From: Oligoflexia bacterium
GTDB taxonomy: Bacteria > Bdellovibrionota > Bdellovibrionia > JABDDW01
Assembly: GCA_020847095.1 (NCBI GenBank)
Contig: JADLCR010000014.1
Location: 33,647 to 97,646, forward strand
Direction: 5' to 3'
DNA: 64,000 bases
The notes beneath the pieces were generated by a model. That model did no database searches. It had not been told where the DNA came from and saw only the letters and a list, made by a program, of their open reading frames with translations. Each line of letters begins with the position of its first letter. Positions within the stretch are counted from its first letter, which is position 1. Below, piece by piece: positions 4,268 through 58,045 of this stretch. Both the position numbers and the translations under genes were made by a program.

Positions 4268-5089
4268 ATGGTCGTGATGGTGACATTGTTAAAGATTTTC
4301 ATGAGTGCCGCTATCGCCTCGACCAATTGCCTGGACGGCATGTCGCAGCTCCATCCCCGCTCTCAATCTATTTACGAATTGGCTACCTGGAACGGCGCTC
4401 TTGAGGCTGCTCGAAAGGAAATCTCGAGAAGACTAAGAAATCCCGAGGCGGAGTTTGCCCGCCTTCACGCCAAAGCGCCTATGGTTCGTGAAGTTCTTGT
4501 CGATGTGGGACATGACCCTGGGGCAGCCAGCGCAGGAGTTTTTCGCGTCAAAACCAATCACGGAACTATGATCCTTAAAATTGTATTGAGTTCGCCGGAT
4601 CCTGACAAAATAGTCAATAAGCTCACTGTCACGAAATCCCTCGTCATTCAAGATGCCTTAAGTCAATTGTCAGGTTATTCATTGTCTCCTGATGTCTACG
4701 GAGTTCTCACTGAGGTTGAAGTCAAAACAGTTATGGAACGATCTGAGTTATTGAAAGACTATAAAGATCCTCTTGGGCGTACTCCGATCTTTGGCGTCCT
4801 AATGCAAGAAATCCCTAATTCTTGGGCTCCAGTAAGATCGTTTCGCAAACCGTTTGAATGGTCACCGTCGCAGGTGGGCCGAGTCCTTGCGCAGCTTGAA
4901 GCAATAAAAGTCATTCTTGATAAAATAGGCCTCGAAGCTCGAGACCTAAATCCACTCATTGATGCCGACGGGCGTGTCTATCTGATTGATTTTGACGAGG
5001 CGGTTCTACTGGCGGAATCGTTAAGAGCAAAGGTTAAAAACAATATTGAAACGGCGACTCAGCAGATCCTGACTGTCCACGGCCATTAA
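4268..5089 (+). CDS. hypothetical protein with protein-kinase-like / aminoglycoside-phosphotransferase-like motifs
   Basis: GVFRVKTNHGTMILKIV (Gly-loop plus VAIK-like Lys), LNPLIDADGRVYLIDFDEA (catalytic-loop-like and DFD). Small atypical kinase fold is an inference. Confidence 0.4.
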   Translation: MVVMVTLLKIFMSAAIASTNCLDGMSQLHPRSQSIYELATWNGALEAARKEISRRLRNPEAEFARLHAKAPMVREVLVDVGHDPGAASAGVFRVKTNHGTMILKIVLSSPDPDKIVNKLTVTKSLVIQDALSQLSGYSLSPDVYGVLTEVEVKTVMERSELLKDYKDPLGRTPIFGVLMQEIPNSWAPVRSFRKPFEWSPSQVGRVLAQLEAIKVILDKIGLEARDLNPLIDADGRVYLIDFDEAVLLAESLRAKVKNNIETATQQILTVHGH

Positions 5090-10900: not shown

Positions 10901-11434
10901 TTAAGTTTCGAGAACCGGTTTACCCTGACGCAAGTTAGGAGTGCTTCCACCCTGAACCGCCTCGGTTGGGGTCGCAATATGGGGCAAGTAACCGTTGTTT
11001 CGCTCAATAAGCTCCAAATGCGCGGTCAGTAAGTTCTTTAGGGCCACTTCAAACTGTGTTTTTTGGCGCTTAAGTTCAGTGATCTCTTGATAGGTTTTTT
11101 TCAGCGAGTCTCTTGAATCTCGAATGATGGCATCAGCTTTTTGTTGTGCATCGTTTAAAACCAAGGCGGCTTCGCGCTCTGCATCTTTTCTCAAATTTTC
11201 AGTCATTTTGTGCGCGGTCATCAAAGTTTCTTTCAAGGCTTTGTCTTTTTCCTTAAATTCCAAAACTTGAAGCTCTCGCTCGCGTAGCATCTCCTTCAAT
11301 TGATTTCGCTCACGAATGACGCCTTCCATTTCAGAAGCGACTTCCTTCAAAAACGAAGCAACTTCTTCGGCATCTAATCCACCGAGTCGTCGACCAAAAG
11401 TTTTGTGAGCAATATCTATTGGAGCTATTTTCAT
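10901..11434 (-). CDS. divIVA: DivIVA-domain cell-division protein
   Basis: N-terminal MKIAPIDIAHKTFGRRLGGLDAEEVASFLKEVA (DivIVA lipid-binding domain) followed by coiled coil. RBS AGGAGGGCAGGC. Confidence 0.75.
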   Translation of the reverse strand: MKIAPIDIAHKTFGRRLGGLDAEEVASFLKEVASEMEGVIRERNQLKEMLRERELQVLEFKEKDKALKETLMTAHKMTENLRKDAEREAALVLNDAQQKADAIIRDSRDSLKKTYQEITELKRQKTQFEVALKNLLTAHLELIERNNGYLPHIATPTEAVQGGSTPNLRQGKPVLET

Positions 11435-11495
11435 GCCTGCCCTCCTTGGACGTGCTTGTACTGATGCTTTTCTTATTTTATATGGTTTTTAAAGC

Positions 11496-12308
11496 CTAGC
11501 GCAATGCCCGAGACAATTCGCGACTGCGATTGCGGGCTCCATCTAGCCCAGCTTTCAATGCAGAGTCCAGTCTGCGCTCACGCATCGACTTAAGTCCAGC
11601 CAGTGTGGTTCCCTTTTTACTTGTGACCTGAGATAAGAGCCTTTCAAAAGAACTGCCAGAATCTTCTGCCAGAAGCGCTGCCCCCAAGAAAACTTTCTGA
11701 ATCGTCTGTTGAGCTTCCAGTTTTGAAAGCCCTTGAGAACAAAGCCACTGAAAGTAAATTTCCATAAACCAAAATAGAAAACCGACTCCTGAAGATGACG
11801 CCGCCAAAACAACGTCAACCAGCTTCTCTGATTTAAGTGTCACGACAAATCCAAGCGACTTTAATGTCTTGATGATGTTCGACTCAGAAGAGCGGACCCG
11901 CGATTCGAAGTAAACACCTAGAACTCCCTTTCCGAGCCGAATTGGCAAGTTCGTCATCACTCGCCCCACCGATCGCGCGCCTACAAGTCTTTTCGAGATG
12001 GCTTTTGAAGAATGCCCGGCAGCAAGACTCAAAAATATTTTACCTCGAGCATAAGGATGAATTTCATCAAGAATTGCCATTAAGTCTTGTGGCTTGGCAC
12101 CCAAGACGATGATGTCGCACTTTTTAACGAGGTCAATATTAGTCGCTGCTTTACGTATTCCCGTTTGTCGCACAAACTTATCAAGTTTCGATTTCGTTCG
12201 ATTGGTGGCAAAAATCTGGCCAGAAGACAACGCCTTAGTACGGAGAAGTCCGGTTATCATTGCTTGCGAAAGATTTCCGCACCCCAAAAAACCCCATCGA
12301 CTTTTCAT
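11496..12308 (-). CDS. proC: pyrroline-5-carboxylate reductase
   Basis: N-terminal Rossmann GxGxxS (FLGCGNLSQAMI). P5CR-length protein with conserved C-terminal dimerisation region. Confidence 0.8.
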   Translation of the reverse strand: MKSRWGFLGCGNLSQAMITGLLRTKALSSGQIFATNRTKSKLDKFVRQTGIRKAATNIDLVKKCDIIVLGAKPQDLMAILDEIHPYARGKIFLSLAAGHSSKAISKRLVGARSVGRVMTNLPIRLGKGVLGVYFESRVRSSESNIIKTLKSLGFVVTLKSEKLVDVVLAASSSGVGFLFWFMEIYFQWLCSQGLSKLEAQQTIQKVFLGAALLAEDSGSSFERLLSQVTSKKGTTLAGLKSMRERRLDSALKAGLDGARNRSRELSRALR

Positions 12309-13015
12309 CTCGCTTCCCCTCGACGACCAAAGATGGCTGTCCCTACTCGAATCATAGTGGCGCCTTCTTCAATAGCAATATCAAAGTCAAAAGTGGTTCC
12401 CATGCTCAATTCTTCGAACTTCATTTGTTGCGATTCAAACTTCTTCAGAAGCTCTTCTTTTAGTTTTCTGAGTTGAACAAAATAATGGCGAGACGCTTCA
12501 GGCTCTGCATCTAGAGGAGGTAGACTCATAAGTCCCACCACTTGCAACCTCTCTAGTCCCTGCATCTGCCCCAAAAGCACATCTAGAGCGCCAACGGGTA
12601 CTCCGGATTTTGTGGGTTCGTCGCCGAGCTTAACTTGAATCATGATTTTCTGAATCACCTGTGCTTCGGCCGCTCGCTTGTTGAGAATTTTAGCGAGATC
12701 AATCCGATCAACCGATTGAATTGTATCAAAGCGGCCAACTGCATATTTTGATTTGTTGGTTTGAAGCGGACCAATGAGATGCCAATGCACATCTAGATTT
12801 TGTAATTTGGCCCGTTCAATTTTCCGAGTGGCCTCTTGAATGTAATTTTCGCCGAAATGCCTAAGGCCCAAGTCATAGGCTTCTTGAATATGTTCGAAGC
12901 TTTTAGTTTTTGAAACAGCAATGAGCTTAGTGGCCCCCTGAGGACGGCCGGATTTTTTCTCAGCTTGAGCGATGCGATCGACTATGCCTGCGATTCGATC
13001 TTGAAGTTCTGACAT
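12305..13015 (-). CDS. yggS: YggS-family PLP-binding protein
   Basis: KLIAVSKTK (PLP-Lys), GHLQSNK-like (IGPLQTNKSKY), alanine-racemase-fold N-terminal pattern. Confidence 0.85.
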   Translation of the reverse strand: MSELQDRIAGIVDRIAQAEKKSGRPQGATKLIAVSKTKSFEHIQEAYDLGLRHFGENYIQEATRKIERAKLQNLDVHWHLIGPLQTNKSKYAVGRFDTIQSVDRIDLAKILNKRAAEAQVIQKIMIQVKLGDEPTKSGVPVGALDVLLGQMQGLERLQVVGLMSLPPLDAEPEASRHYFVQLRKLKEELLKKFESQQMKFEELSMGTTFDFDIAIEEGATMIRVGTAIFGRRGEAR

Positions 13016-13607
13016 TCCATCCCTTTTTTTCTAAAAGCCTTTGAACTTGACGCAGCGGAAGCCCCACGACGTTGAGAAAATCTCCATCCACCGATTTTAT
13101 GAAACTGGCGCCAAGCCCTTGAATTCCGTAGGACCCTGCTTTATCAAACGGCTCCCCCGAGTCAATGTACTTCTGGATCTCCGCGTCGGTCAGCCTGTGA
13201 AACTTCACAAGAGTCGATTCAATATGAATGACTGATTCTTCCGTACTTGAATTCAGAAGGCAAATCGCCGTCTTAACGCAATGAGTCTTGTTTCGAAGAC
13301 GTCCCAGCATGGCCTTGGCGTCTCGCGCGTTTCGAGGCTTACCAAGGACCAGTTTTCCGAGGCAAACGACAGTGTCCGCACTCAAAACAATAAATCCGTC
13401 GTTGTTTCGAGAGCTTAGTTTCGAAAATGCCGCCCAAGCCTTATCCATAACTACTCGCGTCAAATTCTCTTCCAGAGTCAGGTTTTCACTGAATGATTCC
13501 GATGAGTTGGGTGTCATGACAAGGAACTCAAAACCAGAGTCTTTGAGTATTTGCTTTCGTCGCGGCGATGACGAGGCCAGCACTAGCTGGAGTTGGTTCT
13601 TTTTCAT
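12960..13607 (-). CDS. maf: Maf-like nucleoside-triphosphate pyrophosphatase
   Basis: LVLASSSPRRKQIL, GADTVV, GKPRNARDAKAML, YGIQG motifs. Confidence 0.8.
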   Translation of the reverse strand: MKKNQLQLVLASSSPRRKQILKDSGFEFLVMTPNSSESFSENLTLEENLTRVVMDKAWAAFSKLSSRNNDGFIVLSADTVVCLGKLVLGKPRNARDAKAMLGRLRNKTHCVKTAICLLNSSTEESVIHIESTLVKFHRLTDAEIQKYIDSGEPFDKAGSYGIQGLGASFIKSVDGDFLNVVGLPLRQVQRLLEKKGWNVRTSRSNRRHSRSHRSS

Positions 13608-13636
13608 ACGGGGCTTGGTAGCACAATCGAAAGGCA

Positions 13637-14536
13637 TTGGCCATGGCTAACATCTTGCTCATCACGGGAACGGTTTTATCCGGATACGCGGTCTATTTGA
13701 TTGTGTCATCGGTTCTTGCTTCGTTGGGACAGACTCAAGAGATTCAATTGTCGTGGGCCTCGGGAGAAGCTCCTCAAAAATCCAAATCTGGAGTGATTCG
13801 ACTCACACGCCCACTCCTGCACCGCCTGATTCCGTTTACAAATCGCTTTCAGCTGACTGAGTACAAAGAAAAAATCAAAAGAAACATTCAAGCGGCCGGC
13901 CTTGCGGCAGAGCTTAACGAAAATGAATACGTCGCATTGCAAGTCGCCCTTGGATTTATTTTTCCGATCATGATCACCGTTTTAAATTTGTTATTCAACC
14001 TTGGCTACCCTTGGATCATGGTTTTATTTTTCGCAGTGTTTGGCTTTATGTACCCGTACTTGTACGTCAAGGGAGAAAAAGACACGCGCAAAACCCAAGT
14101 TCTTATTGACCTCCCATTTGTCGTCGACTTGCTGGCTCTCTCAACAGAAGCCGGTCTGGATTTCATAGGAGCCATTGGAAAGGTCGTCGACAAAATGACC
14201 GGTGGCCCATTGGCTGAAGAGCTCGGACAAGTGCTGCGCGATCTTAAACTCGGAAGTTCTCGAGCAGAAGCGCTCAACGCGCTGGCCTGGAGACTTAATA
14301 TGAGTGAGGTCTCCAGCTTCATCGCGGTTCTTGTGACAGCTGACTCCCTCGGTGCGAGCATCGGAACCGTTTTGAGACAACAATCTGAACAAATGCGCCA
14401 GGAACGATTTACCAAAGCAGAAAAAATGGGCGCTCAAGCTTCGCAAAAAATATTCTTGCCGTTAGTTTTGTTTATTTTGCCGGCCGTGCTTCTTGTGGTG
14501 TTTGGTCCGGTCATTTTGCAATTTATTGGATCTTGA
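13637..14536 (+). CDS. type II secretion system F-domain (TadB/TadC-like) membrane protein, orphan
   Basis: A single GspF-type domain of about 300 aa with TM helices at both ends. No tadA/cpaF ATPase upstream; the divergent neighbour is maf. Confidence 0.6.
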   Translation: MAMANILLITGTVLSGYAVYLIVSSVLASLGQTQEIQLSWASGEAPQKSKSGVIRLTRPLLHRLIPFTNRFQLTEYKEKIKRNIQAAGLAAELNENEYVALQVALGFIFPIMITVLNLLFNLGYPWIMVLFFAVFGFMYPYLYVKGEKDTRKTQVLIDLPFVVDLLALSTEAGLDFIGAIGKVVDKMTGGPLAEELGQVLRDLKLGSSRAEALNALAWRLNMSEVSSFIAVLVTADSLGASIGTVLRQQSEQMRQERFTKAEKMGAQASQKIFLPLVLFILPAVLLVVFGPVILQFIGS

Positions 14537-14538
14537 AA

Positions 14539-14892
14539 ATGGTGAAAGTGATGAACCAAAGAACTGGAATACTTTTAGGTGATCAAGTTGAGATTGCTCA
14601 AACCTTCTCAACACGCCTCATTGGATTAATCGGCCGCAAAGAACTCAAGTCCGGCGAAGGCCTTTTGATCAAAGGCAGCGGCAATTCCATTCACACTTGC
14701 TTTATGAAATTTCCAATTGACGCCGTTTTTTTTGATTCAAAGGGACAAGTTATTCACCTCGCCAAGGGCCTACACCCGTGGCGAATGACGATTGCAAAAT
14801 CGCTGAAACGAACTGATGTACTTGAGCTACCGATGGGTGCCATCGAAGCTTCAGATACTCGAATTGGAGATCACGTCAGTGTTACGACTTAA
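14539..14892 (+). CDS. DUF192-domain protein
   Basis: RLIGLIGRKELKSGEGLLIKGSGNSIHTCFMKFPIDAVFFD is the DUF192 signature. Overlaps the TadC-like stop. Confidence 0.6.
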   Translation: MVKVMNQRTGILLGDQVEIAQTFSTRLIGLIGRKELKSGEGLLIKGSGNSIHTCFMKFPIDAVFFDSKGQVIHLAKGLHPWRMTIAKSLKRTDVLELPMGAIEASDTRIGDHVSVTT

Positions 14893-16447
14893 GATTATTA
14901 AAGGCCCCGGCCTTGGACAAACAATTCAGTTGAAGCCCGGCGAAAACATCGTTGGACGAGTAGCTCCGAGCGAAGTGATTCTGGGTTCTTCAGGCGTAAG
15001 CAAAAAGCACGCAAAACTCACGGTGTCAGGTGATACCTGCGTCGTTTCGGATTTAGGATCAAGCAATGGCACTTATGTTAATGGCGTAAAAATAAAAGAT
15101 CGCATTGTAAAGCCCGGCGATCGCATCGGCTTTCATGATGTTATCGTGGAGCTGATTAGCGACACTCAATCCGCAAGGCTTCCGATGCCAACGCAACCAC
15201 CCTCACAGTGGAACCAACCGTTACCGTTTCAAAACCAAGGCCCCTTTTCGGCGCCAACAGGAGCTTCTCCGCAGCAACCAACACCCGCTCAAAATAAGTC
15301 CTTTATGGATTACTTAAAGGCGTACGTGGATAAAGTTGTTTTGCCTGGTGTCTACCGATTGAATGAAATGTATTCGATGAATCTTCTCATCGGCGTGTTT
15401 CTCGCCCTTTTTGTTTTAATTGTCACTGTCTTATCAACTATTCCCATGGCTGAGCTGACTCGCGACGGAGTGCAAAAAGAAGCTCAACGTCGAGCCCTGA
15501 CCGTGGCAAGGCAAATGGCCTTCTTTGCTGAAAAGAGTTTGATCGCCGGACAAGAATCAACAATTCGCACAGACTTTGCTGAATCGGAAGAAGGCGTTAA
15601 AGCAGCCCTCGTCATTTCAAGAGAAGATGGTCGAATCATAGCGCCGCTGACAAAGGCACAGAGCTATTCAAATGAAACTTTTGTCGCAAAAGCGCGCACA
15701 CATGATGAAACCTACGTTGAACAAATCTCAGATACCTTGGTCGGCGCTAGCGTTCCGATCCGATCGTTCTCGCCTGAAATTGGCGCACAAACAATCGCCT
15801 ATTATTCTGTCGTGATCTACAAAATGGACTCGCTCAATTACAGCGCTACCGTTGCTTTATTTGCCAGAATCTTGATCATCGCGGCCGTGATCGGAGGCAT
15901 ACTCTATTTCCTTTTATACAAGTTAGTCAGCCATCCCATTCAAGCAGCGGTCATGCAAATGGATGAAGCGCTACGCGGTGACAGAGACACTTTAGAATCC
16001 AAGTATGATTACGAACCGTTTTCAAAACTCATCGACTCAATCAACTCGGCACTTTCAAGAATGGGTTCACCAAGTCAGCAGGCCTCTCAGAACATCGATC
16101 GCACTTCAGAAGTTTCAAATTTGGTTCGCATTATCGCCAACCCCGCGTTTGCCCTTGATGAAAACGGAAAGTTTATTCAAGTGAATGCCGCTTTTGAAGA
16201 GCTTACCGGAATGCGACTGCTCACCCTTCAGGGGCAGGGGCTCGAGACATTGCAAGATCAAGCATTGAAGCTCAATATTGATGATCTCGTTAGTAAAGCG
16301 CGGGGCCAATTGGGCCTGATTCAGACAAATGAGCTCGAAATTGGCGGGCTCAATTACGAAATCGACGTCCAAGCAAGTGCCAAAGAAAATTCACCAGGCG
16401 AAGTGCAGTATTACTTTGGCACTATACAGAGGAGGGCGGCCGCTTGA
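14879..16447 (+). CDS. FHA-domain membrane protein with C-terminal PAS-like region
   Basis: N-terminal FHA (GENIVGRVAPSEVILGSSGVSKKHAKLTVSGDTCVVSDLGSSNGTYVNG), Pro/Gln linker, two TM segments, PAS-like C-terminus. A GTG start at 14879 avoids the long overlap with DUF192. Confidence 0.65.
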   Translation: MLRLKIIKGPGLGQTIQLKPGENIVGRVAPSEVILGSSGVSKKHAKLTVSGDTCVVSDLGSSNGTYVNGVKIKDRIVKPGDRIGFHDVIVELISDTQSARLPMPTQPPSQWNQPLPFQNQGPFSAPTGASPQQPTPAQNKSFMDYLKAYVDKVVLPGVYRLNEMYSMNLLIGVFLALFVLIVTVLSTIPMAELTRDGVQKEAQRRALTVARQMAFFAEKSLIAGQESTIRTDFAESEEGVKAALVISREDGRIIAPLTKAQSYSNETFVAKARTHDETYVEQISDTLVGASVPIRSFSPEIGAQTIAYYSVVIYKMDSLNYSATVALFARILIIAAVIGGILYFLLYKLVSHPIQAAVMQMDEALRGDRDTLESKYDYEPFSKLIDSINSALSRMGSPSQQASQNIDRTSEVSNLVRIIANPAFALDENGKFIQVNAAFEELTGMRLLTLQGQGLETLQDQALKLNIDDLVSKARGQLGLIQTNELEIGGLNYEIDVQASAKENSPGEVQYYFGTIQRRAAA

Positions 16448-17454
16448 GTACGCAGCTCGCTCAAGCCCAACGGGCACAAAACTCCGAGGTTCTGATCACG
16501 GTTCTTTCTGGTCCGGAGAGCGGCGTTGTGTATAAACTCCTCAACAACCAAATCACATTGGGCCGAGCCCAAGACAATGACATCGTTCTTCAAGATCCCA
16601 AAGCAAGTCGCCATCACGCCAAAATAGAAAATCAAGGCGCCAAGTTTGTGATCACTGATTTGGGAAGTCAAAACGGCATCATGGTCAACAATCAAATTGT
16701 CACTCATTCAGATTTGAAGCCTGGGGATCTTTTTATGGTGGGTTCGACCCAAATGAAATTTGGTCCGCCCCAATCAATGGCCTTAGTCAATGCGGCCCCT
16801 CCGGTTTTGCAAGCAAAGCCCGGTTTACCCGCAACACCGCGACCAAAATCCCCACTGGCAAGCCCGCAACCTTGGTCTTCGCCATCTTCTTTGTCTTTAC
16901 CCAAAAAAATCAATCTTCAAGACAAAACCACCAGAAACTTCATCGTGGGCGGAGTGATTATTGCCGTTCTTGTTGTGCTCAGCCAGGTAGGCCCCACAAG
17001 ACGTCAAGGAATTAGCATTAAAGATGATGCGGCCCTTCAAGAAGAAATTGATCAGACAATCGAGAGCAACGAAAAGAAACAAGAAGAAATCTCCAAAAAA
17101 GGTCTCGATACTCAGCAGTATCTTGAGGCGAATGCCTTTTATATGCGCGGTTTCAGAGAGTATCGCGAAGGTAACTTTCCTCGAAGTATTCAAAACTTTG
17201 AAGCCGCTTTAGCTCTTTATCCCAGTCACCCGTTGGCAAAACGTTACCTTGAGCGGTCGAGACTTAAGCTCAATGAACTGATCACAGCAGCCCTTGAGCG
17301 AGGCGAGCGTGCATTTCAGCTTCAACAATACAACAAAGCCAAGAGTGAATACAAAATGGTTTTGTTTTTAACAGGCGACCAAAAATCGAAAAGCGGTCAG
17401 TTGGCGGAAAAACGACTTGAAGCCATTCGCCTCATTCAGGCGACTGGAAGATGA
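16444..17454 (+). CDS. FHA-domain protein with TM segment and TPR-like C-terminus
   Basis: The TTG start overlaps the upstream stop and follows a GAGGAGGG RBS. FHA motif ITLGRAQDNDIVLQDPKASRHHAKIENQGAKFVITDLGSQNG. Confidence 0.7.
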   Translation: MSTQLAQAQRAQNSEVLITVLSGPESGVVYKLLNNQITLGRAQDNDIVLQDPKASRHHAKIENQGAKFVITDLGSQNGIMVNNQIVTHSDLKPGDLFMVGSTQMKFGPPQSMALVNAAPPVLQAKPGLPATPRPKSPLASPQPWSSPSSLSLPKKINLQDKTTRNFIVGGVIIAVLVVLSQVGPTRRQGISIKDDAALQEEIDQTIESNEKKQEEISKKGLDTQQYLEANAFYMRGFREYREGNFPRSIQNFEAALALYPSHPLAKRYLERSRLKLNELITAALERGERAFQLQQYNKAKSEYKMVLFLTGDQKSKSGQLAEKRLEAIRLIQATGR

Positions 17455-17461
17455 GTTGACT

Positions 17462-19348
17462 ATGGCAAAGTTGAGAATATTTCAACAAGGTGTACCGGTA
17501 ACTGAGAAGGATCTTGATACTTCTCAAACATATGTCATTGGCCGCGGAAGCCAGTGTGACATTGTCTTGGATCACCCCGAAGTGTCACGACAACACACAA
17601 AAATTCGCCATGACGGACAAAACTGGATTGCCGAAGTTCTTTCTCGTTTTGGGCGCATAATCGTTCACGGAACTCCGGTTGAATCAGTTTCATTAAGTCA
17701 CGGCGCCGTTTTTTACATTCCACCATTTGAAATTCGTATGGAAGAAACTGCCACTTCAGGGCTGAGCCAAACAATACCCATTCAAGCAACCAACCAATCC
17801 GCCGCAGAATTCTCCGATAAAACAAAGGTGGCGGAGGTTTCACTAAAGTCTGCACTTTTTAGGCTCGACGCTACCGGAGAGCCCGTTGAGGAGATTACTT
17901 TAGGCGCTGGAGTGATTGAAGCAGGGAGAAGTCGCTCGTGTCCGATTCAGCTTAAAGAAGAAGCGGCCAGTCGAAAACACTTCACGATTCTATTCGATGG
18001 AAGTCAGTTTATTTTACAAGATCAAAACGGAAGCTTACCTACACTGGTCAACGGCTCGCCCATTTCGACCCATGTTTTGCAAACCGGTGATGAAATCAGT
18101 GTCGGCCTAGATCGGTTTCGCTTTGAGCTCGTCAATCCAGAATTCGAGAACCTGCCGGCGGTCATCGAGGACGTTTCGGAGAAGACCGAACCTCATGTTC
18201 TTAAAATGACCCCTGAGCAAGTCCCCGCCATTTATCAACATGCGCCGCCAGTTAGCTATGAAGAAAGTCCGTATGGACGCCAAAAGCCCCATTCAAAGAA
18301 GAATACTTTTCGCATTGCCATTTTAGCTTTGGCCGTTGTTGCAGGGATTGGCTACGTCTTTAAAGGTCAGGAGCCCCAACAAACTCAAACCCGTGTGCCC
18401 GCCGGCCAGGGAGCTGTTGCCGTTGCCACTTATGAAAAGCTTTCTGAGCAAGACAAGAAGCTTATTGAAGACACGTACAATTTGGCTCAGTCCCTTTATA
18501 CGAGCGGCAAATACGAATTGGCGGCCATTGAACTCGAAAAACTGTTAAAAATTTATCCCAAACACAAAAAGGCATTAGAGCTTCAAAGTTTCAGCCAGCA
18601 AGCGCTTGAGAGAAAGCGAGAACTAGATGATATCGAACGACGAGATAAAGAACAGGCGGAGTTGCAGTCACGCATAAACGCAACTCTCGACTCTTGTGAA
18701 CGGCTCTATCGTGGAGGGCGCCATGGCGAGGTCGAAGGCTGTGTGAGCCAAATTTCTGATCTCGATCCTGAAAACGAAAGAGCACAAGAACTCAACGCCA
18801 TGGCCCAGCAAGCCATGGAACAAATCGCCCTCACTAACGAACAGCGAGCAGCTGCTTCGCGACGCCGACAGCAGGCGAAAAGTGCCTTCGAAGTCGGGAA
18901 AAAGGCTTTTAATGAAAAACGCTACCCCGCTGCCATTTCTCAATTTCAAAAAGTCATTCAAACCCCGTTTGCTGATAGCGAAGGCATGAAGGCTAAGTCA
19001 AAACTTGGAATCCAGGCCGCAAAAGAACGGATGCAAGAACAAAGCGGACAGCTGGTGCGCGAAGGAAAAGGTCACCTTGATAACAAAGACTACAAAAATG
19101 CCATTTCCAAATTCAAAAAGGCCTTGACTATGTTTCCAAATAACGGAGACGCATCCATTCTTTTGGAAAAAGCTCAAAAGGATTCAAACGTTGAACTCAA
19201 GAACTTGTATGCGGAAAGCGTTCTCGAAGAAAATCTTGGAAACATTGATTCGGCAAAGCGCAAATGGAAGACCATCCTTGATTCTGGACTGGTCGATAGC
19301 GAGTACTATCGAAAGGCCAAAAGCAAACTAGGAAAGTACGAGCGATGA
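17462..19348 (+). CDS. tandem-FHA-domain membrane protein with TPR repeats
   Basis: Two FHA cores (YVIGRGSQCDIVLDHPEVSRQHTKI..., ITLGAGVIEAGRSRSCPIQLKEEAASRKHFTI...). TM helix. C-terminal TPR-like repeats. Confidence 0.7.
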   Translation: MAKLRIFQQGVPVTEKDLDTSQTYVIGRGSQCDIVLDHPEVSRQHTKIRHDGQNWIAEVLSRFGRIIVHGTPVESVSLSHGAVFYIPPFEIRMEETATSGLSQTIPIQATNQSAAEFSDKTKVAEVSLKSALFRLDATGEPVEEITLGAGVIEAGRSRSCPIQLKEEAASRKHFTILFDGSQFILQDQNGSLPTLVNGSPISTHVLQTGDEISVGLDRFRFELVNPEFENLPAVIEDVSEKTEPHVLKMTPEQVPAIYQHAPPVSYEESPYGRQKPHSKKNTFRIAILALAVVAGIGYVFKGQEPQQTQTRVPAGQGAVAVATYEKLSEQDKKLIEDTYNLAQSLYTSGKYELAAIELEKLLKIYPKHKKALELQSFSQQALERKRELDDIERRDKEQAELQSRINATLDSCERLYRGGRHGEVEGCVSQISDLDPENERAQELNAMAQQAMEQIALTNEQRAAASRRRQQAKSAFEVGKKAFNEKRYPAAISQFQKVIQTPFADSEGMKAKSKLGIQAAKERMQEQSGQLVREGKGHLDNKDYKNAISKFKKALTMFPNNGDASILLEKAQKDSNVELKNLYAESVLEENLGNIDSAKRKWKTILDSGLVDSEYYRKAKSKLGKYER

Positions 19349-20031
19349 GTTTTCGAGTAGCAGAAAAAACCTACCCAGGCTCCATCCCTCGGCCCAGTGT
19401 TTCCGTCATGTCGCATGAAGAAACCCGTCTTTTAATCGCCACGACTTCATGGGGAGTCACTGAGGGTTCGCAACTAACTCAGCAAATCATAAAAGATTTT
19501 TACGGAACTTCAATGATCGATCCAGAGGCCACATCACCTTACGCGAAGCTCCCTGATTTATCTGAAAGTGCTAATAGCCTTAGAGCCGCCATGCTCTTAG
19601 CAAACGGAACACTGTTTCAAAAGCTCAACACGCCAACCTACCAATCCGGGGTCGAAACCGTCGCATTGGCCCTACATCAACGCGAACTCGTTTGGGTTCA
19701 GGCTGGTCTACCTAATCTCTTTTTATTGAGATCAGGGACCGTGATTCCGCTGCATTTTCAACATGATCTTTCTTCTGAAATGAATATGAAATATCCGTTG
19801 CCCGCGAAACTTCTGGGCACAACCGCCCAGCTTGATATTGAGACTAAGTCCTTTGTCATTAAAGAGGGCGACAAAATTATTTTGCTCTCACGAAGCAAGC
19901 CGGCGCGTACTTTGTTGGCGAAATCCTACTCCGAATCTGAAAGCTCTAAACTCTGCCAAATGATGTTGGATCAGATCGTCAAAGAAAATGAAGAGCTTCC
20001 GTTTTGGATTGCCGTTATCGATCTCGATTGA
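19345..20031 (+). CDS. hypothetical protein, possibly a degenerate PP2C-like (pseudo-phosphatase) fold
   Basis: ATGA overlap with the FHA gene. Layout resembles PP2C (LIATTSWGVTEG..., VALALHQRELVWVQAGLPNLFLLRSG), but the metal-binding Asp residues are not evident. Confidence 0.4.
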   Translation: MSFRVAEKTYPGSIPRPSVSVMSHEETRLLIATTSWGVTEGSQLTQQIIKDFYGTSMIDPEATSPYAKLPDLSESANSLRAAMLLANGTLFQKLNTPTYQSGVETVALALHQRELVWVQAGLPNLFLLRSGTVIPLHFQHDLSSEMNMKYPLPAKLLGTTAQLDIETKSFVIKEGDKIILLSRSKPARTLLAKSYSESESSKLCQMMLDQIVKENEELPFWIAVIDLD

Positions 20032-20032
20032 T

Positions 20033-20626
20033 TCAATCAAATTCTGAAAAGTCTTCGGCGTTTTTCTCTTTGAAGCGACTTGGTGCGCTTTTGTGGCCGC
20101 CAAAATGATAAAGCACCCCAATTCCCACGCCGACACCAAATGAATTTTTAGATTTGGCATACAGTGTTGGGGCTACCTCTAAATTCACTGACCAAGGAGA
20201 TTGGGTGATCACATACTCAACGCCAAAGGTTCCACGAAACCCAATTTGATAATTGTCATTTGGATCGGAGCCAGATACTCCAACGCCGCCCAATACACCC
20301 GGGCCCAAATAGAGCATAAGAGAATTCCAAAAATTATCACTCAAACGGCGATCTTGGGCATCAAAGAAGTAAAATAGATAGTCGGCGCTTCCTAAAACAA
20401 CTCGATTCGCTATTGAATAGCCCGCTGAAAAAGACAGGGCCCTCTTCCAAGCGCTGTAGTATTGGACCCGCGCCAAACTGGGTTCACCTGCAATAACTCC
20501 TAACCCCCAAGTGCCCTCTCTGTAGCCCGAGAACTTTTTTGACTTTGGAGCAAAGCTGGCTCCTAAGACCTCAAAACTGAATAAGCCAATAAGCATTGAC
20601 ATAAACAAGATAACGATGGTTTTCAT
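20033..20626 (-). CDS. outer-membrane beta-barrel protein (OmpW/opacity-like)
   Basis: The internal Met at 20626 gives signal peptide MKTIVILFMSMLIGLFSFEVLGA. Gly/aromatic-rich strands follow. Confidence 0.55.
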   Translation of the reverse strand: MKTIVILFMSMLIGLFSFEVLGASFAPKSKKFSGYREGTWGLGVIAGEPSLARVQYYSAWKRALSFSAGYSIANRVVLGSADYLFYFFDAQDRRLSDNFWNSLMLYLGPGVLGGVGVSGSDPNDNYQIGFRGTFGVEYVITQSPWSVNLEVAPTLYAKSKNSFGVGVGIGVLYHFGGHKSAPSRFKEKNAEDFSEFD

Positions 20627-20727
20627 AGGGCTAGTTTGCGGCAAAATTCCCGTAATTCCAATGCTTTTCAGCAGACCCTCAGTGGCGCTGACCTTGCAGT
20701 CAAAAGCCCATCGTAGGTGGAGAGTTA

Positions 20728-21921
20728 ATGAATCGCCTTTTAAGAATTTGGATTTGGCCAAGAGGCCCAATTTTGGCACTAGTGTCTGGGCTATTGTCGG
20801 CCCTGATCTCACTGTCGGCATGGGCCAACACGCCATTTATTTCTCAAGATGACTGCGCGCCGCAGCTGTTGAAGCTGTCTAATGGCAGTCCCATTAAACC
20901 CGATTTAAATAACTTCGGCTCGGCCCGCGGTTATGCCTGGGCCGTAAGAAACATTGTGAAAACCCGCGCCGGAGACTTTTTGATCGATGCCGAAAGAACC
21001 TCAACAAATGAGCAATATCGCAAAGACTCTAAGCCTTACCCCGTATCACCCGAAGCCCGTGAACCGTACTTTTTTGAAACTTTAGGGCGAGCAGCTCAAA
21101 TCTTCGGATTTAAAAAAGTAAGCATTAAGCGATGGCTCTTACCGTCCGTTGAACTCATCAACGCGACTATTGACCTGTACAACGCAACGCTTAGCCCTAA
21201 GCTGAAAAGTTACTCCTTTGGCTTTAAGTATTATTGGAGCCATCGCTCCGAACTTGACCCTCGCACTTATGCCAAACGATACGCTGAGCTTGGTGAACTG
21301 CCCGTTGCATCTTTCAGCGATTCCACTCCTCGGGAATCAGGACAAGAAAGTCCATATACAGCCCATTTGTTTTTTCATGACCTCTACCACATCGGAGATT
21401 TCGCTCCCGCGCCGCTCATTCGGATTTCTCGGACCCAAGCCGCAATTCTTGTCGCCTTTGAGGAGTTTCTGAGAAAGGAAAAACCCGCTCTCGCTCAAGA
21501 ACTCGATCGGGATCAAGCATTTTGGATGGATTATTATGATTTTTGGTCGAAGGGGTTTGATTCAGGCCAAGGAAATTTAAACTTATCCGTTTACCTCAAA
21601 TATTCAAACCTCTTTTCGAACGAGACTCCTGGTATAGCCGAAGCTCTCCATCGTATGATTCAGGATAGCCGCACTCCGCAGGAATTTCTTTCGCTTGCCG
21701 TTGGTGACGCATTTTCAGGTTTTCATATTCCACATTCTATCATTCGAGAACTACGGCTGGCTGAAAAAGACTTTTTAGCGAAGCATGGCTCCAAATTTGA
21801 TCTTAAAGACGACTTCGAATGGTATAAGTCACAAACTGACGCGTCACTAGATCAAGCCGTCAGTCATAAAAGACGAACCATGATTGACACTCTCACTCAA
21901 TTGATCAAAGACCTTGAATAG
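20728..21921 (+). CDS. hypothetical secreted protein (397 aa)
   Basis: RBS GGTGGAGAG. Signal peptide. No assignable motif. Confidence 0.5.
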   Translation: MNRLLRIWIWPRGPILALVSGLLSALISLSAWANTPFISQDDCAPQLLKLSNGSPIKPDLNNFGSARGYAWAVRNIVKTRAGDFLIDAERTSTNEQYRKDSKPYPVSPEAREPYFFETLGRAAQIFGFKKVSIKRWLLPSVELINATIDLYNATLSPKLKSYSFGFKYYWSHRSELDPRTYAKRYAELGELPVASFSDSTPRESGQESPYTAHLFFHDLYHIGDFAPAPLIRISRTQAAILVAFEEFLRKEKPALAQELDRDQAFWMDYYDFWSKGFDSGQGNLNLSVYLKYSNLFSNETPGIAEALHRMIQDSRTPQEFLSLAVGDAFSGFHIPHSIIRELRLAEKDFLAKHGSKFDLKDDFEWYKSQTDASLDQAVSHKRRTMIDTLTQLIKDLE

Positions 21922-21967: not shown

Positions 21968-22780
21968 ATGGAATTTCCAAAATCGACGCCAGAATATCAA
22001 GAGCTTAAAGAGCTCAAAGAACCTTGGGGCATTAGTTACGGGCCCATTGAGAGTCGTCGGCTTGGGCTTAGCTTAGGGATCAATTTATTAGGCGGTGGAG
22101 AAAAGGTTTGTAGCTACGACTGTCCGTATTGTGAATTGGGTTTTACGACTTTAAAGCTTTCGCAGATAAAAAAAACCATTAATTTTCCGACGCTTCAACA
22201 AGTCGATGATGCGATTCGTCAGCACATTCTTAAATTAAACAAAGAGGGCGTTACCTTAGACTCTCTTTCGATCGTGGGTAATGGCGAGCCCACGCTGTAC
22301 CCGGATTTTCCTGAGGCCGTTGAAGTGGTGATCAAAATTCGCGATGAATTGTCACCGCAATCTAAGGTCTCGATCCTCAGCAATGGGACCACCCTTGATA
22401 ACAATAAAATTATCCGCGCATTAAACCGTTTAGATGATCGAATGATCAAGCTCGACGCCGGCAATGATGAAATGCTCAAAAAAATTGATAACCCACTCGT
22501 TCGCATGAGCATTGCCAAGCTTGTTCAATCAACAAAAGGATTAAAAGACGTTATTTTGCAGTCATTTTTTGTTCAAGGAGTCATCGACAATACGGCGACC
22601 AATGAGGTTGAAGATTGGATCGAGACCGTGGGCTTGATCAAACCCAAGCTCGTGCATATTTATGGTCTAGATCGCGTTCCCCCGCTAGCCGGCCTCAAAC
22701 AAGTTCCACCGCAAAAACTTAAAGAGATCTCTCAGAAGCTAACAAAAAAGACCGGAATCAAAGCCCTCGTTTTTGCCTGA
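21968..22780 (+). CDS. radical SAM protein, minimal single-cluster type
   Basis: GPIESRRLGLSLGINL...CSYDCPYC (CX3CX2C). No further Cys cluster, so not a SPASM/anSME type. Confidence 0.7.
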   Translation: MEFPKSTPEYQELKELKEPWGISYGPIESRRLGLSLGINLLGGGEKVCSYDCPYCELGFTTLKLSQIKKTINFPTLQQVDDAIRQHILKLNKEGVTLDSLSIVGNGEPTLYPDFPEAVEVVIKIRDELSPQSKVSILSNGTTLDNNKIIRALNRLDDRMIKLDAGNDEMLKKIDNPLVRMSIAKLVQSTKGLKDVILQSFFVQGVIDNTATNEVEDWIETVGLIKPKLVHIYGLDRVPPLAGLKQVPPQKLKEISQKLTKKTGIKALVFA

Positions 22781-24656
22781 AATATCCAGAAAATTCATTA
22801 TCCTCACAAAGCGCAAGCACTTGATCCAAAACAGATGGACCTTCTAACAACGCTGGGTCAAAATCCCAGGTGGCACCGTCAGTCCAAAAGATCTTTGCAA
22901 ACTCGACTTGCTCTTGTCGCCTTAACGTCAAGCTCAAGGCCGACTCGGCAAACTCTTGAGCCTCTCGATGGGCGCCGCGTTTAGAGGCCGCAAACGAAAG
23001 AAGCCAATATTGTACTTCTTGATCCACACACTCTTTAGTCCGTGCTAATGACTCGATCTCTTTTGGCGTGAGTCCGCCGAGAGCAGCGCCCAATTTCAAA
23101 CAACCATTGACCGAAGACGCCGGAAAATTTTTGGGAGGCTCCACTCTTAAACGCCTATACGCCGTGAACAGCCATTGGTACTTTTCATCGACAGCGGCGG
23201 GAAGAAGCGGCTTAGCGTCTCGTAACACGCTCGGAATTAGAGGCCAATCACCTTTCTCAAAAGCAATTCTGATCAACCATTGCACGACTTGCCAATCATC
23301 GGGCCGGCGAAGCCTGAGCTCTTGCAGTTCTTGCTTTTGGCTTTCATAGGTCGTGTACCGAGAAAAAACGTTGCGGGCCACTCTAAGTTTTTCTCCTAAT
23401 GAATAACTCAAAGTCGTCGGTTGTCGGTCTTTAAAATAAAGGTCCTTGATGGCCTCCCAATGGCCAGAAATTTTTTTAAATGATGTGTAGTCTTTCGAAA
23501 ATAGATTCTGTTGTTCCATGCGATCGGTATAAGTATTAAAAAGCCTCGGCTCCGTTCCGTCCCAAAACATGAGCTCACCAAGCCTCAGTGAAATCTGCAC
23601 ATCTCCCCAACCGCGTAAAACCGGCAAGTATGACTCAATCACGAGTGGAAGATTGTTTTCACCCAAACCGCGCCCTTCGATGGCGGGCTTTAGACTCCGA
23701 TGCTTGAAATGCCGAGGAATATTCTTCTCAACATTGATGAGTTCAAATAGTGTCACGCCTAAGTCAGCCAATGATACGGAAGTATCAATCGACCAAGATG
23801 GAACTTTATCTCTCACAGGTGTTGAGGGCTTTATGACTAGCGGGACTTGCGCCACCTCGTTGTAGAGATTGATGCCTTTTGAAAGACTTTCGTGTTCGTT
23901 ACGGGCCAGACCCTGTAACCCGACAAGGACAACCGTTGTGGGTTCCCAGATGCGCCTCTTTTTTAAATATTCCCGCAACTTTAGAATGGCTAAATCAATA
24001 TCCTGGAGTTTTCCGTTATAGGCCCCTTCAAGGCTTTCAACGGAAGCTTTTAACGGGCCCGGAAGTTCCGGAAATAAGAGGTCGTTAAAATATAAGACTG
24101 AAAAAAATGATGCCCCTTCTGCACGGTCTTCGAGCAACTGAATAAATCGTTCGACGACGGCTTCGGCGGGCCTATAAAAACGGCCGCCCTCACGAACCGA
24201 GTCGTCAAAGTCTCCAAATCCCTTTGCTAAGGCCGATTTTCGCAACACGGGCACTCCACCGCTGACGAGTATGGTCTCCATTCCTTTTTCGCGGGCAAGT
24301 TGGGCCAGGCTCTTCACCGATTCGGAGTATCGACTGACACCATCCGTACGCACGCCCGACTCAAGGGGGACCAGACCGGTAAGGATGGAACTAATGGCCG
24401 CATTTGTTGCCACGGAAGTGGTGTAAGCATGGGTAAATCGCACGCCTTCGGAGCACAGGCGATCAAGATTTGGGGTAATGCTTTCTTGAAGCGCGCCGCA
24501 ATTGACGGCGTCAGCCCGCAGGCTTGGGACCGCAATGACGATGACCGATCCGTTTCCGCCGGGCCCAGGACTTGAGCAAGCAAGACTCAAAGACAAACTG
24601 ACCAAGAGAACTATGTTTTGACTCAGCCGCGTCATGAGTTTTCCCTTCAAGTGCAT
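22758..24656 (-). CDS. alkaline-phosphatase-superfamily (sulfatase/phosphotransferase-like) lipoprotein with C-terminal helical-repeat domain
   Basis: Lipobox LSLACSS. N-terminal sulfatase-like core (VIAVPSLRAD...YTTSVATNAAISSILTG, Thr/Ser rather than Cys at the nucleophile position). Helical repeats in the C-terminal half. Confidence 0.55.
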   Translation of the reverse strand: MHLKGKLMTRLSQNIVLLVSLSLSLACSSPGPGGNGSVIVIAVPSLRADAVNCGALQESITPNLDRLCSEGVRFTHAYTTSVATNAAISSILTGLVPLESGVRTDGVSRYSESVKSLAQLAREKGMETILVSGGVPVLRKSALAKGFGDFDDSVREGGRFYRPAEAVVERFIQLLEDRAEGASFFSVLYFNDLLFPELPGPLKASVESLEGAYNGKLQDIDLAILKLREYLKKRRIWEPTTVVLVGLQGLARNEHESLSKGINLYNEVAQVPLVIKPSTPVRDKVPSWSIDTSVSLADLGVTLFELINVEKNIPRHFKHRSLKPAIEGRGLGENNLPLVIESYLPVLRGWGDVQISLRLGELMFWDGTEPRLFNTYTDRMEQQNLFSKDYTSFKKISGHWEAIKDLYFKDRQPTTLSYSLGEKLRVARNVFSRYTTYESQKQELQELRLRRPDDWQVVQWLIRIAFEKGDWPLIPSVLRDAKPLLPAAVDEKYQWLFTAYRRLRVEPPKNFPASSVNGCLKLGAALGGLTPKEIESLARTKECVDQEVQYWLLSFAASKRGAHREAQEFAESALSLTLRRQEQVEFAKIFWTDGATWDFDPALLEGPSVLDQVLALCEDNEFSGYFRQKRGL

Positions 24657-24711
24657 TATGCCCCCTGTTACACTTTTGGTTCAGGCGTTCGACTTAAGGA
24701 GACACTAAACT

Positions 24712-25338
24712 ATGCTAACTCAAAAACTCTTATCCGTCACGAGCGGCGGAGCCGAATGGATTCTGTATCTGCTCATTTTTCTATCCGTTTGTTCAGTAGC
24801 CATAATCATTGAACGTTATCTGGCGCTTAAACATATCTTAAAAGCGACGAATATGATTTCTGACCGAGCCAAAGAGGCCCTAAAGGCCAATGACTTTCAG
24901 GCCATTGAGGAAATTGGAAAAATCCATGAATCGTTTGAGGGTCGCCTTGTGGCTCACGCAATCCGACACCTCAACAACAAGGGCCGTTCGATTGAAGAGG
25001 TTATCGGCGGATTTGTTAACCTTGAGCGCCCTATTCTTGAAAAAAACCTGGCCTTCTTGGGAACTCTCGGAAACAGCGCCCCGTTTATTGGACTTTTGGG
25101 AACCGTTCTCGGAATCGTCAAGGCATTTGCTGATCTCGCCGGCGCTCAAGGCAACCCGAGTGTGGTTATGGCAGGTATTTCTGAGGCGCTCGTCTCAACG
25201 GCGGTCGGTCTCTTTGTGGCCATTCCCGCAGCCATTGCTTACAATTTTTTCCAACGCCAAGTTCGTCGAGTGATGCAAAGTGCAGATAGCATGAAACAAC
25301 TGTGCATCGCTTACGCGAAAGAAAAGGGACTTCGTTAA
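24712..25338 (+). CDS. MotA/TolQ/ExbB-family proton channel
   Basis: RBS AAGGAG. Three TM helices. Conserved C-terminal NSAPFIGLLGTVLGIVKAF motif. Confidence 0.8.
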   Translation: MLTQKLLSVTSGGAEWILYLLIFLSVCSVAIIIERYLALKHILKATNMISDRAKEALKANDFQAIEEIGKIHESFEGRLVAHAIRHLNNKGRSIEEVIGGFVNLERPILEKNLAFLGTLGNSAPFIGLLGTVLGIVKAFADLAGAQGNPSVVMAGISEALVSTAVGLFVAIPAAIAYNFFQRQVRRVMQSADSMKQLCIAYAKEKGLR

Positions 25339-25757
25339 TGGCTGGCGGATCTTTCAATTCTCAAGACGAAGATCAGCTCATCACTGATATTAACGTAACC
25401 CCGTTAGTTGACGTTGTCTTGGTTTTGCTTATCATTTTCATGGTCACAACGCCCATGATCATGAAGCCCTCGATTAACGTGAATCTGCCAAAGGCGGCGA
25501 GTGCTGATCAAGCAAGTCCCGGTGAACTTCAAGTGACGATCAGCAAAGACGGAAAAATTTTTGCCAACGGAAATCAAGTCGGTGAAGATGGTCTCAAAGC
25601 CGTGGCAACAGAGTTAGTAACAGCCAATGCCGAGACTCAGGCCATGATTAGCGCCGATAAAGACACTCCTCACGGGATTGTTATTTCAGCGATTGATATC
25701 ATTAAGGGTGCCGGCATTAAGCGGTTTGCCATCAATATCGAAAAGAAAAATAAGTAG
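25338..25757 (+). CDS. ExbD/TolR-family protein
   Basis: TAATG overlap with the upstream gene. INVTPLVDVVLVLLIIFMV single TM signature. Confidence 0.8.
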   Translation: MAGGSFNSQDEDQLITDINVTPLVDVVLVLLIIFMVTTPMIMKPSINVNLPKAASADQASPGELQVTISKDGKIFANGNQVGEDGLKAVATELVTANAETQAMISADKDTPHGIVISAIDIIKGAGIKRFAINIEKKNK

Positions 25758-57893: not shown

Positions 57894-58045
57894 GATCACT
57901 CCCTCAGCCGGACTCTCTGTGCAATCACGACGCCAATTTGCACATAACGGGTCTTTGAGATCCCGAAAGTTCACCTTTTTTGTCCAAATATTTTTCACTT
58001 TCCGCTGGTTTAAAGTCCCGCGCCCTATCGGCCGAACTCTGGGTT

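Follow-up and report, generated by a model that had tools for sequence, protein, structure and literature searches.

A tadC-led six-gene operon of an uncultured Oligoflexia bacterium is orthologous to Bd0470-Bd0475 of Bdellovibrio bacteriovorus and encodes three FHA membrane proteins and a predicted PP2C-fold pseudophosphatase

Six consecutive genes at positions 13637-20031 of the forward strand of a 64-kb stretch of contig JADLCR010000014.1 (the whole stretch is called the window below), from an uncultured Oligoflexia bacterium, form an operon that is orthologous to Bd0470-Bd0475 of Bdellovibrio bacteriovorus and is conserved with it as a unit. The operon encodes, in order, a TadC-type protein, a DUF192 protein, three membrane proteins with forkhead-associated (FHA) domains and a protein of 228 amino acids (aa) predicted to have the fold, without the metal ligands, of a PP2C phosphatase. 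We consider it probable (roughly 0.6) that the block is the tadC locus of a predatory tight adherence (Tad) nanomachine, i.e. a Kil-like type IVc pilus, accompanied by FHA adaptors and a dead PP2C regulator. An earlier note, made from the letters of the stretch, had described a phospho-signalling or secretion-regulation module of unknown function; the direction of this proposal was right, while the orthologous operon turns out to be known and to be needed for predation (PMC6561027). As the orthologue has been studied experimentally, the window adds a distant orthologue to it and not a new system.

The features of the block are the following.

13608..13636, no strand: divergent spacer between maf and tadC, about 30 nt; the likely maf start methionine lies at 13607 on the - strand.
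13637..14536, + strand: tadC, single T2SSF domain, about 299 aa; TTG start at 13637, with ATG 13643 as an alternative.
14533..14892, + strand: DUF192 (COG1430) gene, 117-119 aa; start within the TTGA shared with the tadC stop, or at ATG 14539.
14879..16447, + strand: Bd0472-like gene, FHA-transmembrane segment-periplasmic part-transmembrane segment-PAS, 522 aa; likely GTG start at 14879, the longest open reading frame (ORF) running from 14816.
14948-15133 and 16115-16429, + strand: FHA domain and C-terminal PAS domain of the Bd0472-like protein (Pfam).
16444..17454, + strand: Bd0473-like gene, 336 aa; FHA, proline-rich linker, transmembrane segment, periplasmic TPR.
16552-16743 and 17128-17229, + strand: FHA and TPR_2 domains of the Bd0473-like protein (Pfam).
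17462..19348, + strand: Bd0474-like gene, two FHA domains-transmembrane segment-TPR, 628 aa; ATG start at 17462, with TTG 17456 and TTG 17417 (a 643-aa ORF) also possible.
17522-17740, 17921-18106 and about 18476-19165, + strand: FHA-1, FHA-2 and periplasmic TPR region of the Bd0474-like protein (Pfam).
19345..20031, + strand: Bd0475-like gene for the predicted PP2C-fold pseudophosphatase, stand-alone, 228 aa.
19519-19542, + strand: threonine loop D59-x-E-x-T63-S-P-Y/F of that protein, with the T63 codon at 19531-19533 (defined by ortholog conservation).

All six ORFs are intact and overlap or abut, and their junctions show translational coupling. The tadC stop and the DUF192 start share a TTGA at 14533-14536 (unless the alternative ATG 14539 is used), a second TTGA at 16444-16447, with AGAGGAGGG ahead of the start, joins the Bd0472-like to the Bd0473-like gene, and an ATGA at 19345-19348 joins the Bd0474-like gene to the last one. 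The Bd0473-like and Bd0474-like genes are separated by a gap of 7 nt before ATG 17462, the in-frame TTG codons at 17456 and 17417 being alternative starts. The earlier note had already listed six coupled genes, which the sequence bears out at every junction; it had also placed a GTG within the stop of the DUF192 gene, and here the overlap is real, but GTG 14879 begins 11 nt ahead of the TAA (14890-14892), so that the two genes share 14 nt. An identical 14-nt overlap is found in a B. bacteriovorus locus (L055), and the TTG start of tadC agrees with the N-terminal length of its orthologs. The number of promoter-like and terminator-like sites within the block was not above shuffle expectation, and no consensus sigma-70 site was found on the + strand of the maf-tadC spacer. 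The equivalent gaps measure 35 nt in locus L001 and 30 nt in locus L087. This spacer leaves so little room that any promoter of the operon has to extend into the coding sequence of maf. With start codons some 30-35 nt apart, the control regions of the two transcription units must be shared or overlapping.

The correspondence to Bd0470-Bd0475 covers the same six genes, in the same order and with the same overlaps. The flanks are equal too, with DivIVA, ProC, YggS and Maf genes upstream and sulfatase and ExbB/ExbD genes downstream. The last three products of L055 measure 386, 674 and 228 aa, the published lengths of Bd0473, Bd0474 and Bd0475, which share an operon with Bd0470-Bd0472 (PMC12034629). 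The TadC proteins are 49-50% identical between the window and B. bacteriovorus (L055 and L056) over 95% of their length and in full synteny; the other five products are 26-36% identical to those of L055 over nearly their full length, and the window FHA proteins are shorter (522, 336 and 628 aa versus 557, 386 and 674 aa).

Whereas the Oligoflexia host is known here from the genes of its metagenome-assembled genome (MAG), the B. bacteriovorus operon comes with mutants and localisation data. A transposon insertion in Bd0470 abolished attachment, killing and rounding of prey, while a Bd0474 insertion mutant still attached but neither killed nor rounded prey, and both were complemented (PMC6561027). 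In strain HD100, tadC is separate from tad locus 1, with FHA, TPR and PAS protein genes in its vicinity; it resisted deletion, from which the authors infer essentiality, and foci of TadC-mCherry were seen at the invasive pole (bioRxiv 10.64898/2026.07.08.737194). Bd0474 binds the TPR protein Bd0075 in a bacterial two-hybrid (BACTH) assay (PMC12034629). The requirement for predation is thus shown for B. bacteriovorus only.

To assess how far the block extends through the phylum, we searched a single genome of each species with a TadC profile and obtained 80 loci, all from Bdellovibrionota. Presence of each neighbour was counted in loci long enough to test it, using tblastn with the window proteins and family hidden Markov models (HMMs) for weak cases. 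The DUF192 gene directly follows tadC in 78/78 testable loci, and the FHA-PAS, FHA-TPR and 2xFHA-TPR genes were found in 71/71, 67/67 and 59/59, respectively; the gene for the 228-aa protein follows the 2xFHA gene in 53 of 54. With tblastn by itself, four loci had seemed to lack the pseudophosphatase and four the DUF192 gene, but the family HMMs recovered all except L007, so these absences were artefacts of sensitivity. A homologue 37% identical to the 228-aa protein, on a metagenome contig of 214 kb, is likewise encoded in this block of six genes, between the same flanking genes. The block, unfragmented in the window, is therefore conserved as a unit across Bdellovibrionota, and what the earlier note had taken for a lone, orphan TadC is the usual state in this phylum, where tadC always lies apart from the main tad locus, in this operon.

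The first product is predicted from its sequence to be the inner-membrane platform protein of a Tad (type IVc) pilus machine. It matches Pfam T2SSF (9.4e-18), has transmembrane segments by hydropathy and is 49-74% identical to proteins named 'tight adherence protein C'; unlike the two-domain GspF/PilC type, it is of the one-domain TadB/TadC type. The second product matches Pfam DUF192 (2.2e-20) and has neither a signal peptide nor a transmembrane segment, so it is predicted to be cytoplasmic; a phmmer search against the PDB sequences returned no match. What the DUF192 literature yields is a recurrent adjacency to tad genes in Firmicutes, where the two consistently adjoin in Erysipelotrichales and Helcococcus (PMC12786226, 2025). 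Together with its presence in every testable locus, this adjacency suggests that the DUF192 protein is best read as a recurrent Tad accessory protein.

The T2SSF, DUF192 and FHA assignments that had been made by eye, with four FHA domains on three membrane proteins, were all recovered by Pfam. PF00498 (FHA) scores 57, 70 and 95 bits on the third, fourth and fifth products, against a cut-off of 20.7, and hydropathy gives them 2, 1 and 1 transmembrane segments. The Bd0472-like protein (FHA 2.3e-15, PAS 1.3e-5) would run from a cytoplasmic FHA domain through a transmembrane segment, about 135 periplasmic residues and a second transmembrane segment to the PAS domain. By hydropathy the Bd0473-like protein (FHA 2.6e-19, TPR_2 6.7e-7) and the Bd0474-like protein (FHA 2.9e-27 in two stretches, plus several TPR families) have a single transmembrane segment each, with the FHA side in the cytoplasm and the TPR side in the periplasm, and the architecture of the latter agrees with that published for Bd0474 (PMC12034629). 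The conservation of the phosphothreonine pocket was counted over 52-73 orthologs per domain. The Bd0472-like FHA domain conserves GR, SKxH and SsNGT at 90% or above in 73 orthologs, the Bd0473-like domain conserves GR, SRxH and the Asn at 90% or above, and in the Bd0474-like protein FHA-2 retains GR, SR and S-x-NGT but has no conserved His.

Several named families were tried for these proteins and rejected. Each matched over the FHA region or core and fell short of its cut-off: type III secretion system (T3SS) SctD with TIGR02500 (17.6, 24.6 and 18.9 bits versus 86, N-terminal domain only), the gliding protein GltG with NF033760 (36.6-46.1 versus 650), TagH with TIGR03354 (42.8 versus 120) and OdhI, whose NCBIfam score lies far under its cut-off. 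Among the NCBIfam models, FhaB/FipA (Rv0019c) matches the FHA domains best, with 48-77 bits against a cut-off of 125.

The last gene is where the window adds most. Its product, identical to hypothetical protein IT289_02540 of an Oligoflexia MAG, has no transmembrane segment by hydropathy, and the Pfam models PP2C, PP2C_2 and SpoIIE all stay under threshold, the best being SpoIIE at E 0.008 (16.6 bits versus a cut-off of 25). An AlphaFold2 model built with nine homologues reached a pLDDT of 87.5 and a pTM of 0.87, and a Foldseek search of this model against the PDB yielded 157 matches with E values up to 0.001, headed by PP2C phosphatases: PstP (1txo, 6e-13), PppA (6jkv, 7.6e-13) and tPphA, with E values from 6e-13 to 1e-11 and TM scores of 0.63-0.73, followed further down by MspP, SpoIIE and Stp1. 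On the strength of this model, the 228-aa protein is predicted to have a PP2C fold, in line with the degenerate PP2C-like layout that the earlier note had made out.

The metal site of this fold is gone. Its positions were mapped by a profile search against the PDB sequences, which aligned the C-terminal half to tPphA, and by an hhalign comparison of the family profile with the PstP sequence (verified against 2cm1), weak in itself (E 0.05) and used for column mapping only. These alignments place the equivalents of PstP D38, D192 and D118, whereas those of D25 and D229 were placed by motif spacing. D38 (of DGMGG) corresponds to Thr in the family motif A-T-P-W-G, D192 (the Asp of SDG) to Arg, His or Ser, D25 (NED) to Ile or Val, D229 (DN) to Phe in P-F-W and D118 to a variable residue. 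No acidic residue dominates any of these columns in either 53 syntenic orthologs or 152 representatives. With the metal-binding Asp positions replaced on a PP2C fold, we read the protein as a PP2C-fold pseudophosphatase.

An exhaustive search placed this family in 444 representative clusters, and the best 150 of the 444 are all 108-253 aa long. Across the 152 representatives, W36 is conserved in 152, E104 in 151, G121 in 150 and T63 in 146. T63 (T61 in B. bacteriovorus) lies in the loop D59-x-E-x-T63-S-P-Y/F, which is an insertion relative to PstP; D59 is kept in 135/152 and position 61 is Glu or Asp in 148/152. The B. bacteriovorus protein has been called a hypothetical protein (PMC12034629), and a literature search linking Bdellovibrio with PP2C or pseudophosphatase returned nothing relevant. 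Hence the assignment of the Bd0475 family as PP2C pseudophosphatases is a fresh detail on a known operon.

Pseudophosphatases of this kind have precedents in the C-terminal domain of Escherichia coli RssB and in eukaryotic TAB1. PHLPP2 is another (PMC12002173). Like them, the 228-aa family combines the PP2C fold with a degenerate metal site, which in those proteins serves a binding or adaptor role; in contrast to them, it is a stand-alone protein of about 225 aa whose gene comes after the 2xFHA gene wherever it was found in the loci examined, and there is no detectable sequence relationship.

Neither the operon nor its surroundings supply a kinase. Every window ORF of at least 150 aa, apart from 44041-44721, was scanned with Pfam, and none of those scanned matched Pkinase. 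A tblastn search with the PknB kinase domain and PstP, single queries of limited sensitivity whose sequences were verified (PstP 2cm1, PknB vs PDB), found nothing at E of 1 or below in the 1.42 Mb made up of the window and 86 related loci. No Hanks kinase and no active PP2C thus occur within about 10 kb of the operon in the related loci. That the operon itself lacks a kinase had been noticed from the letters; the small ORF at 4268-5089 (+) that had then been called kinase-like, and likewise its neighbour at 3013-4116 (+), have no Pfam match even at E 0.05.

Next to the B. bacteriovorus operon, a close known system is the Kil machine of Myxococcus xanthus, likewise a Tad-derived predation machine with a TadC homologue beside FHA genes and no dedicated kinase assigned (PMC8460266). 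Bd0470 is the reciprocal best hit of KilH (PMC8460266, supplementary file 2), and in Kil cluster 2 KilH (MXAN_4650) is followed by MXAN_4649 (FHA) and MXAN_4648 (FHA and TPR) (PMC8460266). The excess of FHA proteins in the Kil system has been noted and a signalling role proposed (PMC8460266; review PMC12428579). The two systems differ in that kilH lies beside kilG (TadB), kilB and pilin genes whereas the window tadC is split off from such genes, that the Kil clusters list no DUF192 or PP2C-like gene whereas the window operon has both, and that the Kil ATPase itself carries an FHA domain. A second likeness is to the H1 type VI secretion system (H1-T6SS) of Pseudomonas aeruginosa (PpkA, PppA, Fha1), in which FHA and PP2C-fold proteins are encoded with a contact-responsive trans-envelope nanomachine, as here, and in the Foldseek ranking for the 228-aa protein PppA comes second. 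There, however, the kinase is in the cluster, PppA is active and the machine is a T6SS, whereas the window has no kinase, a PP2C fold without metal ligands and a putative Tad pilus.

From these elements we propose the following mechanism. TadC would be the second inner-membrane platform subunit and would join TadB, a TadA-type ATPase, a secretin and pilins, all encoded elsewhere, at the invasive pole, with the DUF192 protein as a recurrent cytoplasmic accessory factor. The three FHA membrane proteins would act as accessory trans-envelope adaptors, whose periplasmic TPR or sensor-like parts may contact periplasmic and outer-envelope partners (in the case of Bd0474, Bd0075) while their cytoplasmic FHA domains may provide docking sites for phosphorylated partners at the machine's base. 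Such docking could couple prey contact to a step after attachment, that is prey remodelling and entry, and control of a post-attachment step fits the phenotype of the Bd0474 mutant. The pseudophosphatase would most likely serve the FHA proteins as a regulator or adaptor without catalysis, perhaps by means of its invariant Thr loop. The kinase writing the phosphothreonine would be encoded elsewhere. The dependence on phosphorylation, the role as adaptors and the way in which the pseudophosphatase works are our inference.

A number of observations weigh against this proposal. The window holds no TadA, TadB or secretin among its ORFs of at least 150 aa, and a literature search for a Bdellovibrio Ser/Thr kinase tied to FHA proteins returned nothing relevant. 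Phosphothreonine binding by the FHA domains is suggested by their conserved residues, and one of the four, FHA-1 of the Bd0474-like protein, has GR and SRxH but no conserved Asn; moreover, the Pfam model Yop-YscD_cpl, a phospho-independent domain of T3SS YscD, scores about as high as FHA on all three proteins. The AlphaFold-Multimer prediction for Bd0473 with Bd0475 gave a borderline ipTM of 0.60 (PMC12034629). Finally, the pseudophosphatase is not indispensable to the module, since it is missing from L007 (13656-16099), a locus of a closely related Oligoflexia MAG with a TadC 63% identical, where the operon ends after the 2xFHA-TPR gene and a convergent gene for an outer-membrane-protein-like product follows after 11 nt; this is the sole true loss among the 54 testable loci.

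The strongest alternative builds on some of these points and takes the block as a phospho-independent scaffold, in which the FHA-transmembrane-TPR proteins are SctD-like ring or alignment parts, the dead PP2C protein is another structural subunit and no kinase is needed. The FHA-like domains of T3SS SctD (YscD/PrgH) are phospho-independent and have lost the residues of the phosphothreonine pocket. SctD shares the topology seen here, with an N-terminal cytoplasmic FHA-type domain, a single transmembrane segment and a periplasmic domain, and Yop-YscD_cpl equals or exceeds FHA in score on all three proteins (8.4e-23 versus 2.6e-19 on the fourth product). A scaffold would also agree with a dead phosphatase, with the lack of a kinase or active phosphatase in the 1.42 Mb, with the periplasmic, TPR-mediated contact between Bd0474 and Bd0075, and with the lack of TadD, TadG and RcpB in Kil-type systems, which leaves room for substitute envelope-spanning parts (PMC8460266). 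Yet three of the four FHA domains conserve Arg, Ser and Asn at 90% or above over 52-73 orthologs, the SctD model TIGR02500 reaches 18-25 bits against its cut-off of 86, and the periplasmic parts are associated with TPR and PAS domains, not with ring-building motifs. As pocket residues lost in SctD are retained here, phosphothreonine binding seems the better reading of these domains, and a scaffold without it unlikely. The two proposals are in any case compatible, since a scaffold can be phospho-regulated.

The genes upstream raise another possibility, namely that the FHA and PP2C-like proteins belong to a division or polarity module together with DivIVA, ProC, YggS and Maf, and are merely co-transcribed with tadC. 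In Mycobacterium, FhaA/FhaB, PstP and PknA/B sit with division genes. The four neighbours lie on the other strand at 10901-13637, as Maf, a YggS-type pyridoxal-phosphate (PLP) protein, ProC and DivIVA, and their adjacency is conserved: Maf was found upstream in 74/74 testable loci, YggS in 67/71, ProC in 64/65 and DivIVA in 54/61. FhaB/FipA is the best NCBIfam match of the FHA domains, and PstP the top structural match of the 228-aa protein. The NCBIfam scores are all below cut-off, though, and cover the FHA core only; it is to tadC that the genes are translationally coupled, the division cluster being on the other strand; transposon mutants of Bd0474 and Bd0470 were obtained in a host-independent background; and in Myxococcus the FHA genes adjoin kilH, where no division genes are close by. 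We therefore regard a division module as very unlikely. Least credible, by a shade, is an atypical active phosphatase that dephosphorylates phosphothreonine through E104, D59 and E61 and pairs with the FHA proteins and a remote kinase: the fold is intact and confidently modelled, those positions are well conserved and R16 (129/152) may, by motif spacing, equal the phosphate-binding Arg20 of PstP, but D25, D38, D192 and D229 are replaced by I/V, T, R/H/S and F in the 152 representatives, D59 and E61 lie in the inserted loop, off the active-site positions, and the PP2C-type Pfam models stay under threshold.

Returning to the non-catalytic regulator that we favour, we offer a more specific proposal tentatively, as a possibility that we would not rate as probable. 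The Bd0475-family pseudophosphatase may be a switch that gates the passage from attachment to entry across Bdellovibrionota, either because its invariant Thr is phosphorylated by a remote kinase and read by an FHA domain, or because its dead site traps partners carrying phosphothreonine.

The remaining genes of the window are described here for completeness. Downstream of the operon come a convergent outer-membrane-protein-like gene, a gene without assignment, and radical-SAM, sulfatase, ExbB/ExbD, lipoate and 2-oxoacid-dehydrogenase genes. The first of these, at 20033-20836 (-), ends 1 nt past the last stop of the operon and has no Pfam match; in its longest ORF a signal-peptide-like segment begins at residue 71, which makes a start near 20626 probable, and the product looks like a small outer-membrane beta-barrel. 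Homologues hold the same position in L001, L007, L023 and L065. The radical-SAM, sulfatase and ExbB/ExbD genes (21968-25757) are syntenic in many Bdellovibrionota loci, so that the conserved neighbourhood reaches well past the six genes. On the upstream side, yggS and maf are further apart in four loci of B. bacteriovorus and closely related Bdellovibrio (L055, L056, L061 and L067), where about 1.5-3.5 kb of DNA absent from the window lies between them; this DNA may hold the histidine-kinase-type gene drawn near tadC in bioRxiv 10.64898/2026.07.08.737194.

The rest of the window encodes transporters, metabolic functions and several genes without assignment, and no pilus ATPase, pilin or other tad/pil gene was found among the scanned ORFs of at least 150 aa. 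The MshEN domain is the cyclic di-GMP-binding N-terminal domain of MshE-type pilus ATPases, and it is the sole match (9.7e-10) of a 301-aa protein encoded at 46715-47620 (+), whose gene sits within an Opp/Dpp-type ABC transporter operon, with the permease gene on one side and the ATPase gene on the other. Four further ORFs, at 39118-42606 (+), 997-2871 (-), 32413-33768 (+) and 57980-59176 (+), encode products of 1162, 624, 451 and 398 aa with no Pfam match at E of 1e-5 or below. A 931-aa protein encoded at 34755-37550 (+) has an unusual architecture, its sole Pfam match being a partial Transketolase_N domain (residues 318-413).

The residual novelty of these findings is modest and lies in three points: the pseudophosphatase with its Thr loop, a unit of six genes that is nearly universal, and a linked kinase that is consistently absent. 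It is the six-gene block, and not tadC alone, that is near-universal in Bdellovibrionota, which argues that the DUF192 protein, the FHA proteins and the product of the last gene are integral to the machine. Recognising Bd0475 as a predicted PP2C-fold pseudoenzyme with a nearly invariant Thr loop gives concrete targets for point mutants. The FHA pockets look competent to bind phosphothreonine, yet in none of the genomes examined is the operon accompanied by a kinase gene, so the source of the signal is to be sought genome-wide. These leads bear on how prey contact turns into invasion.

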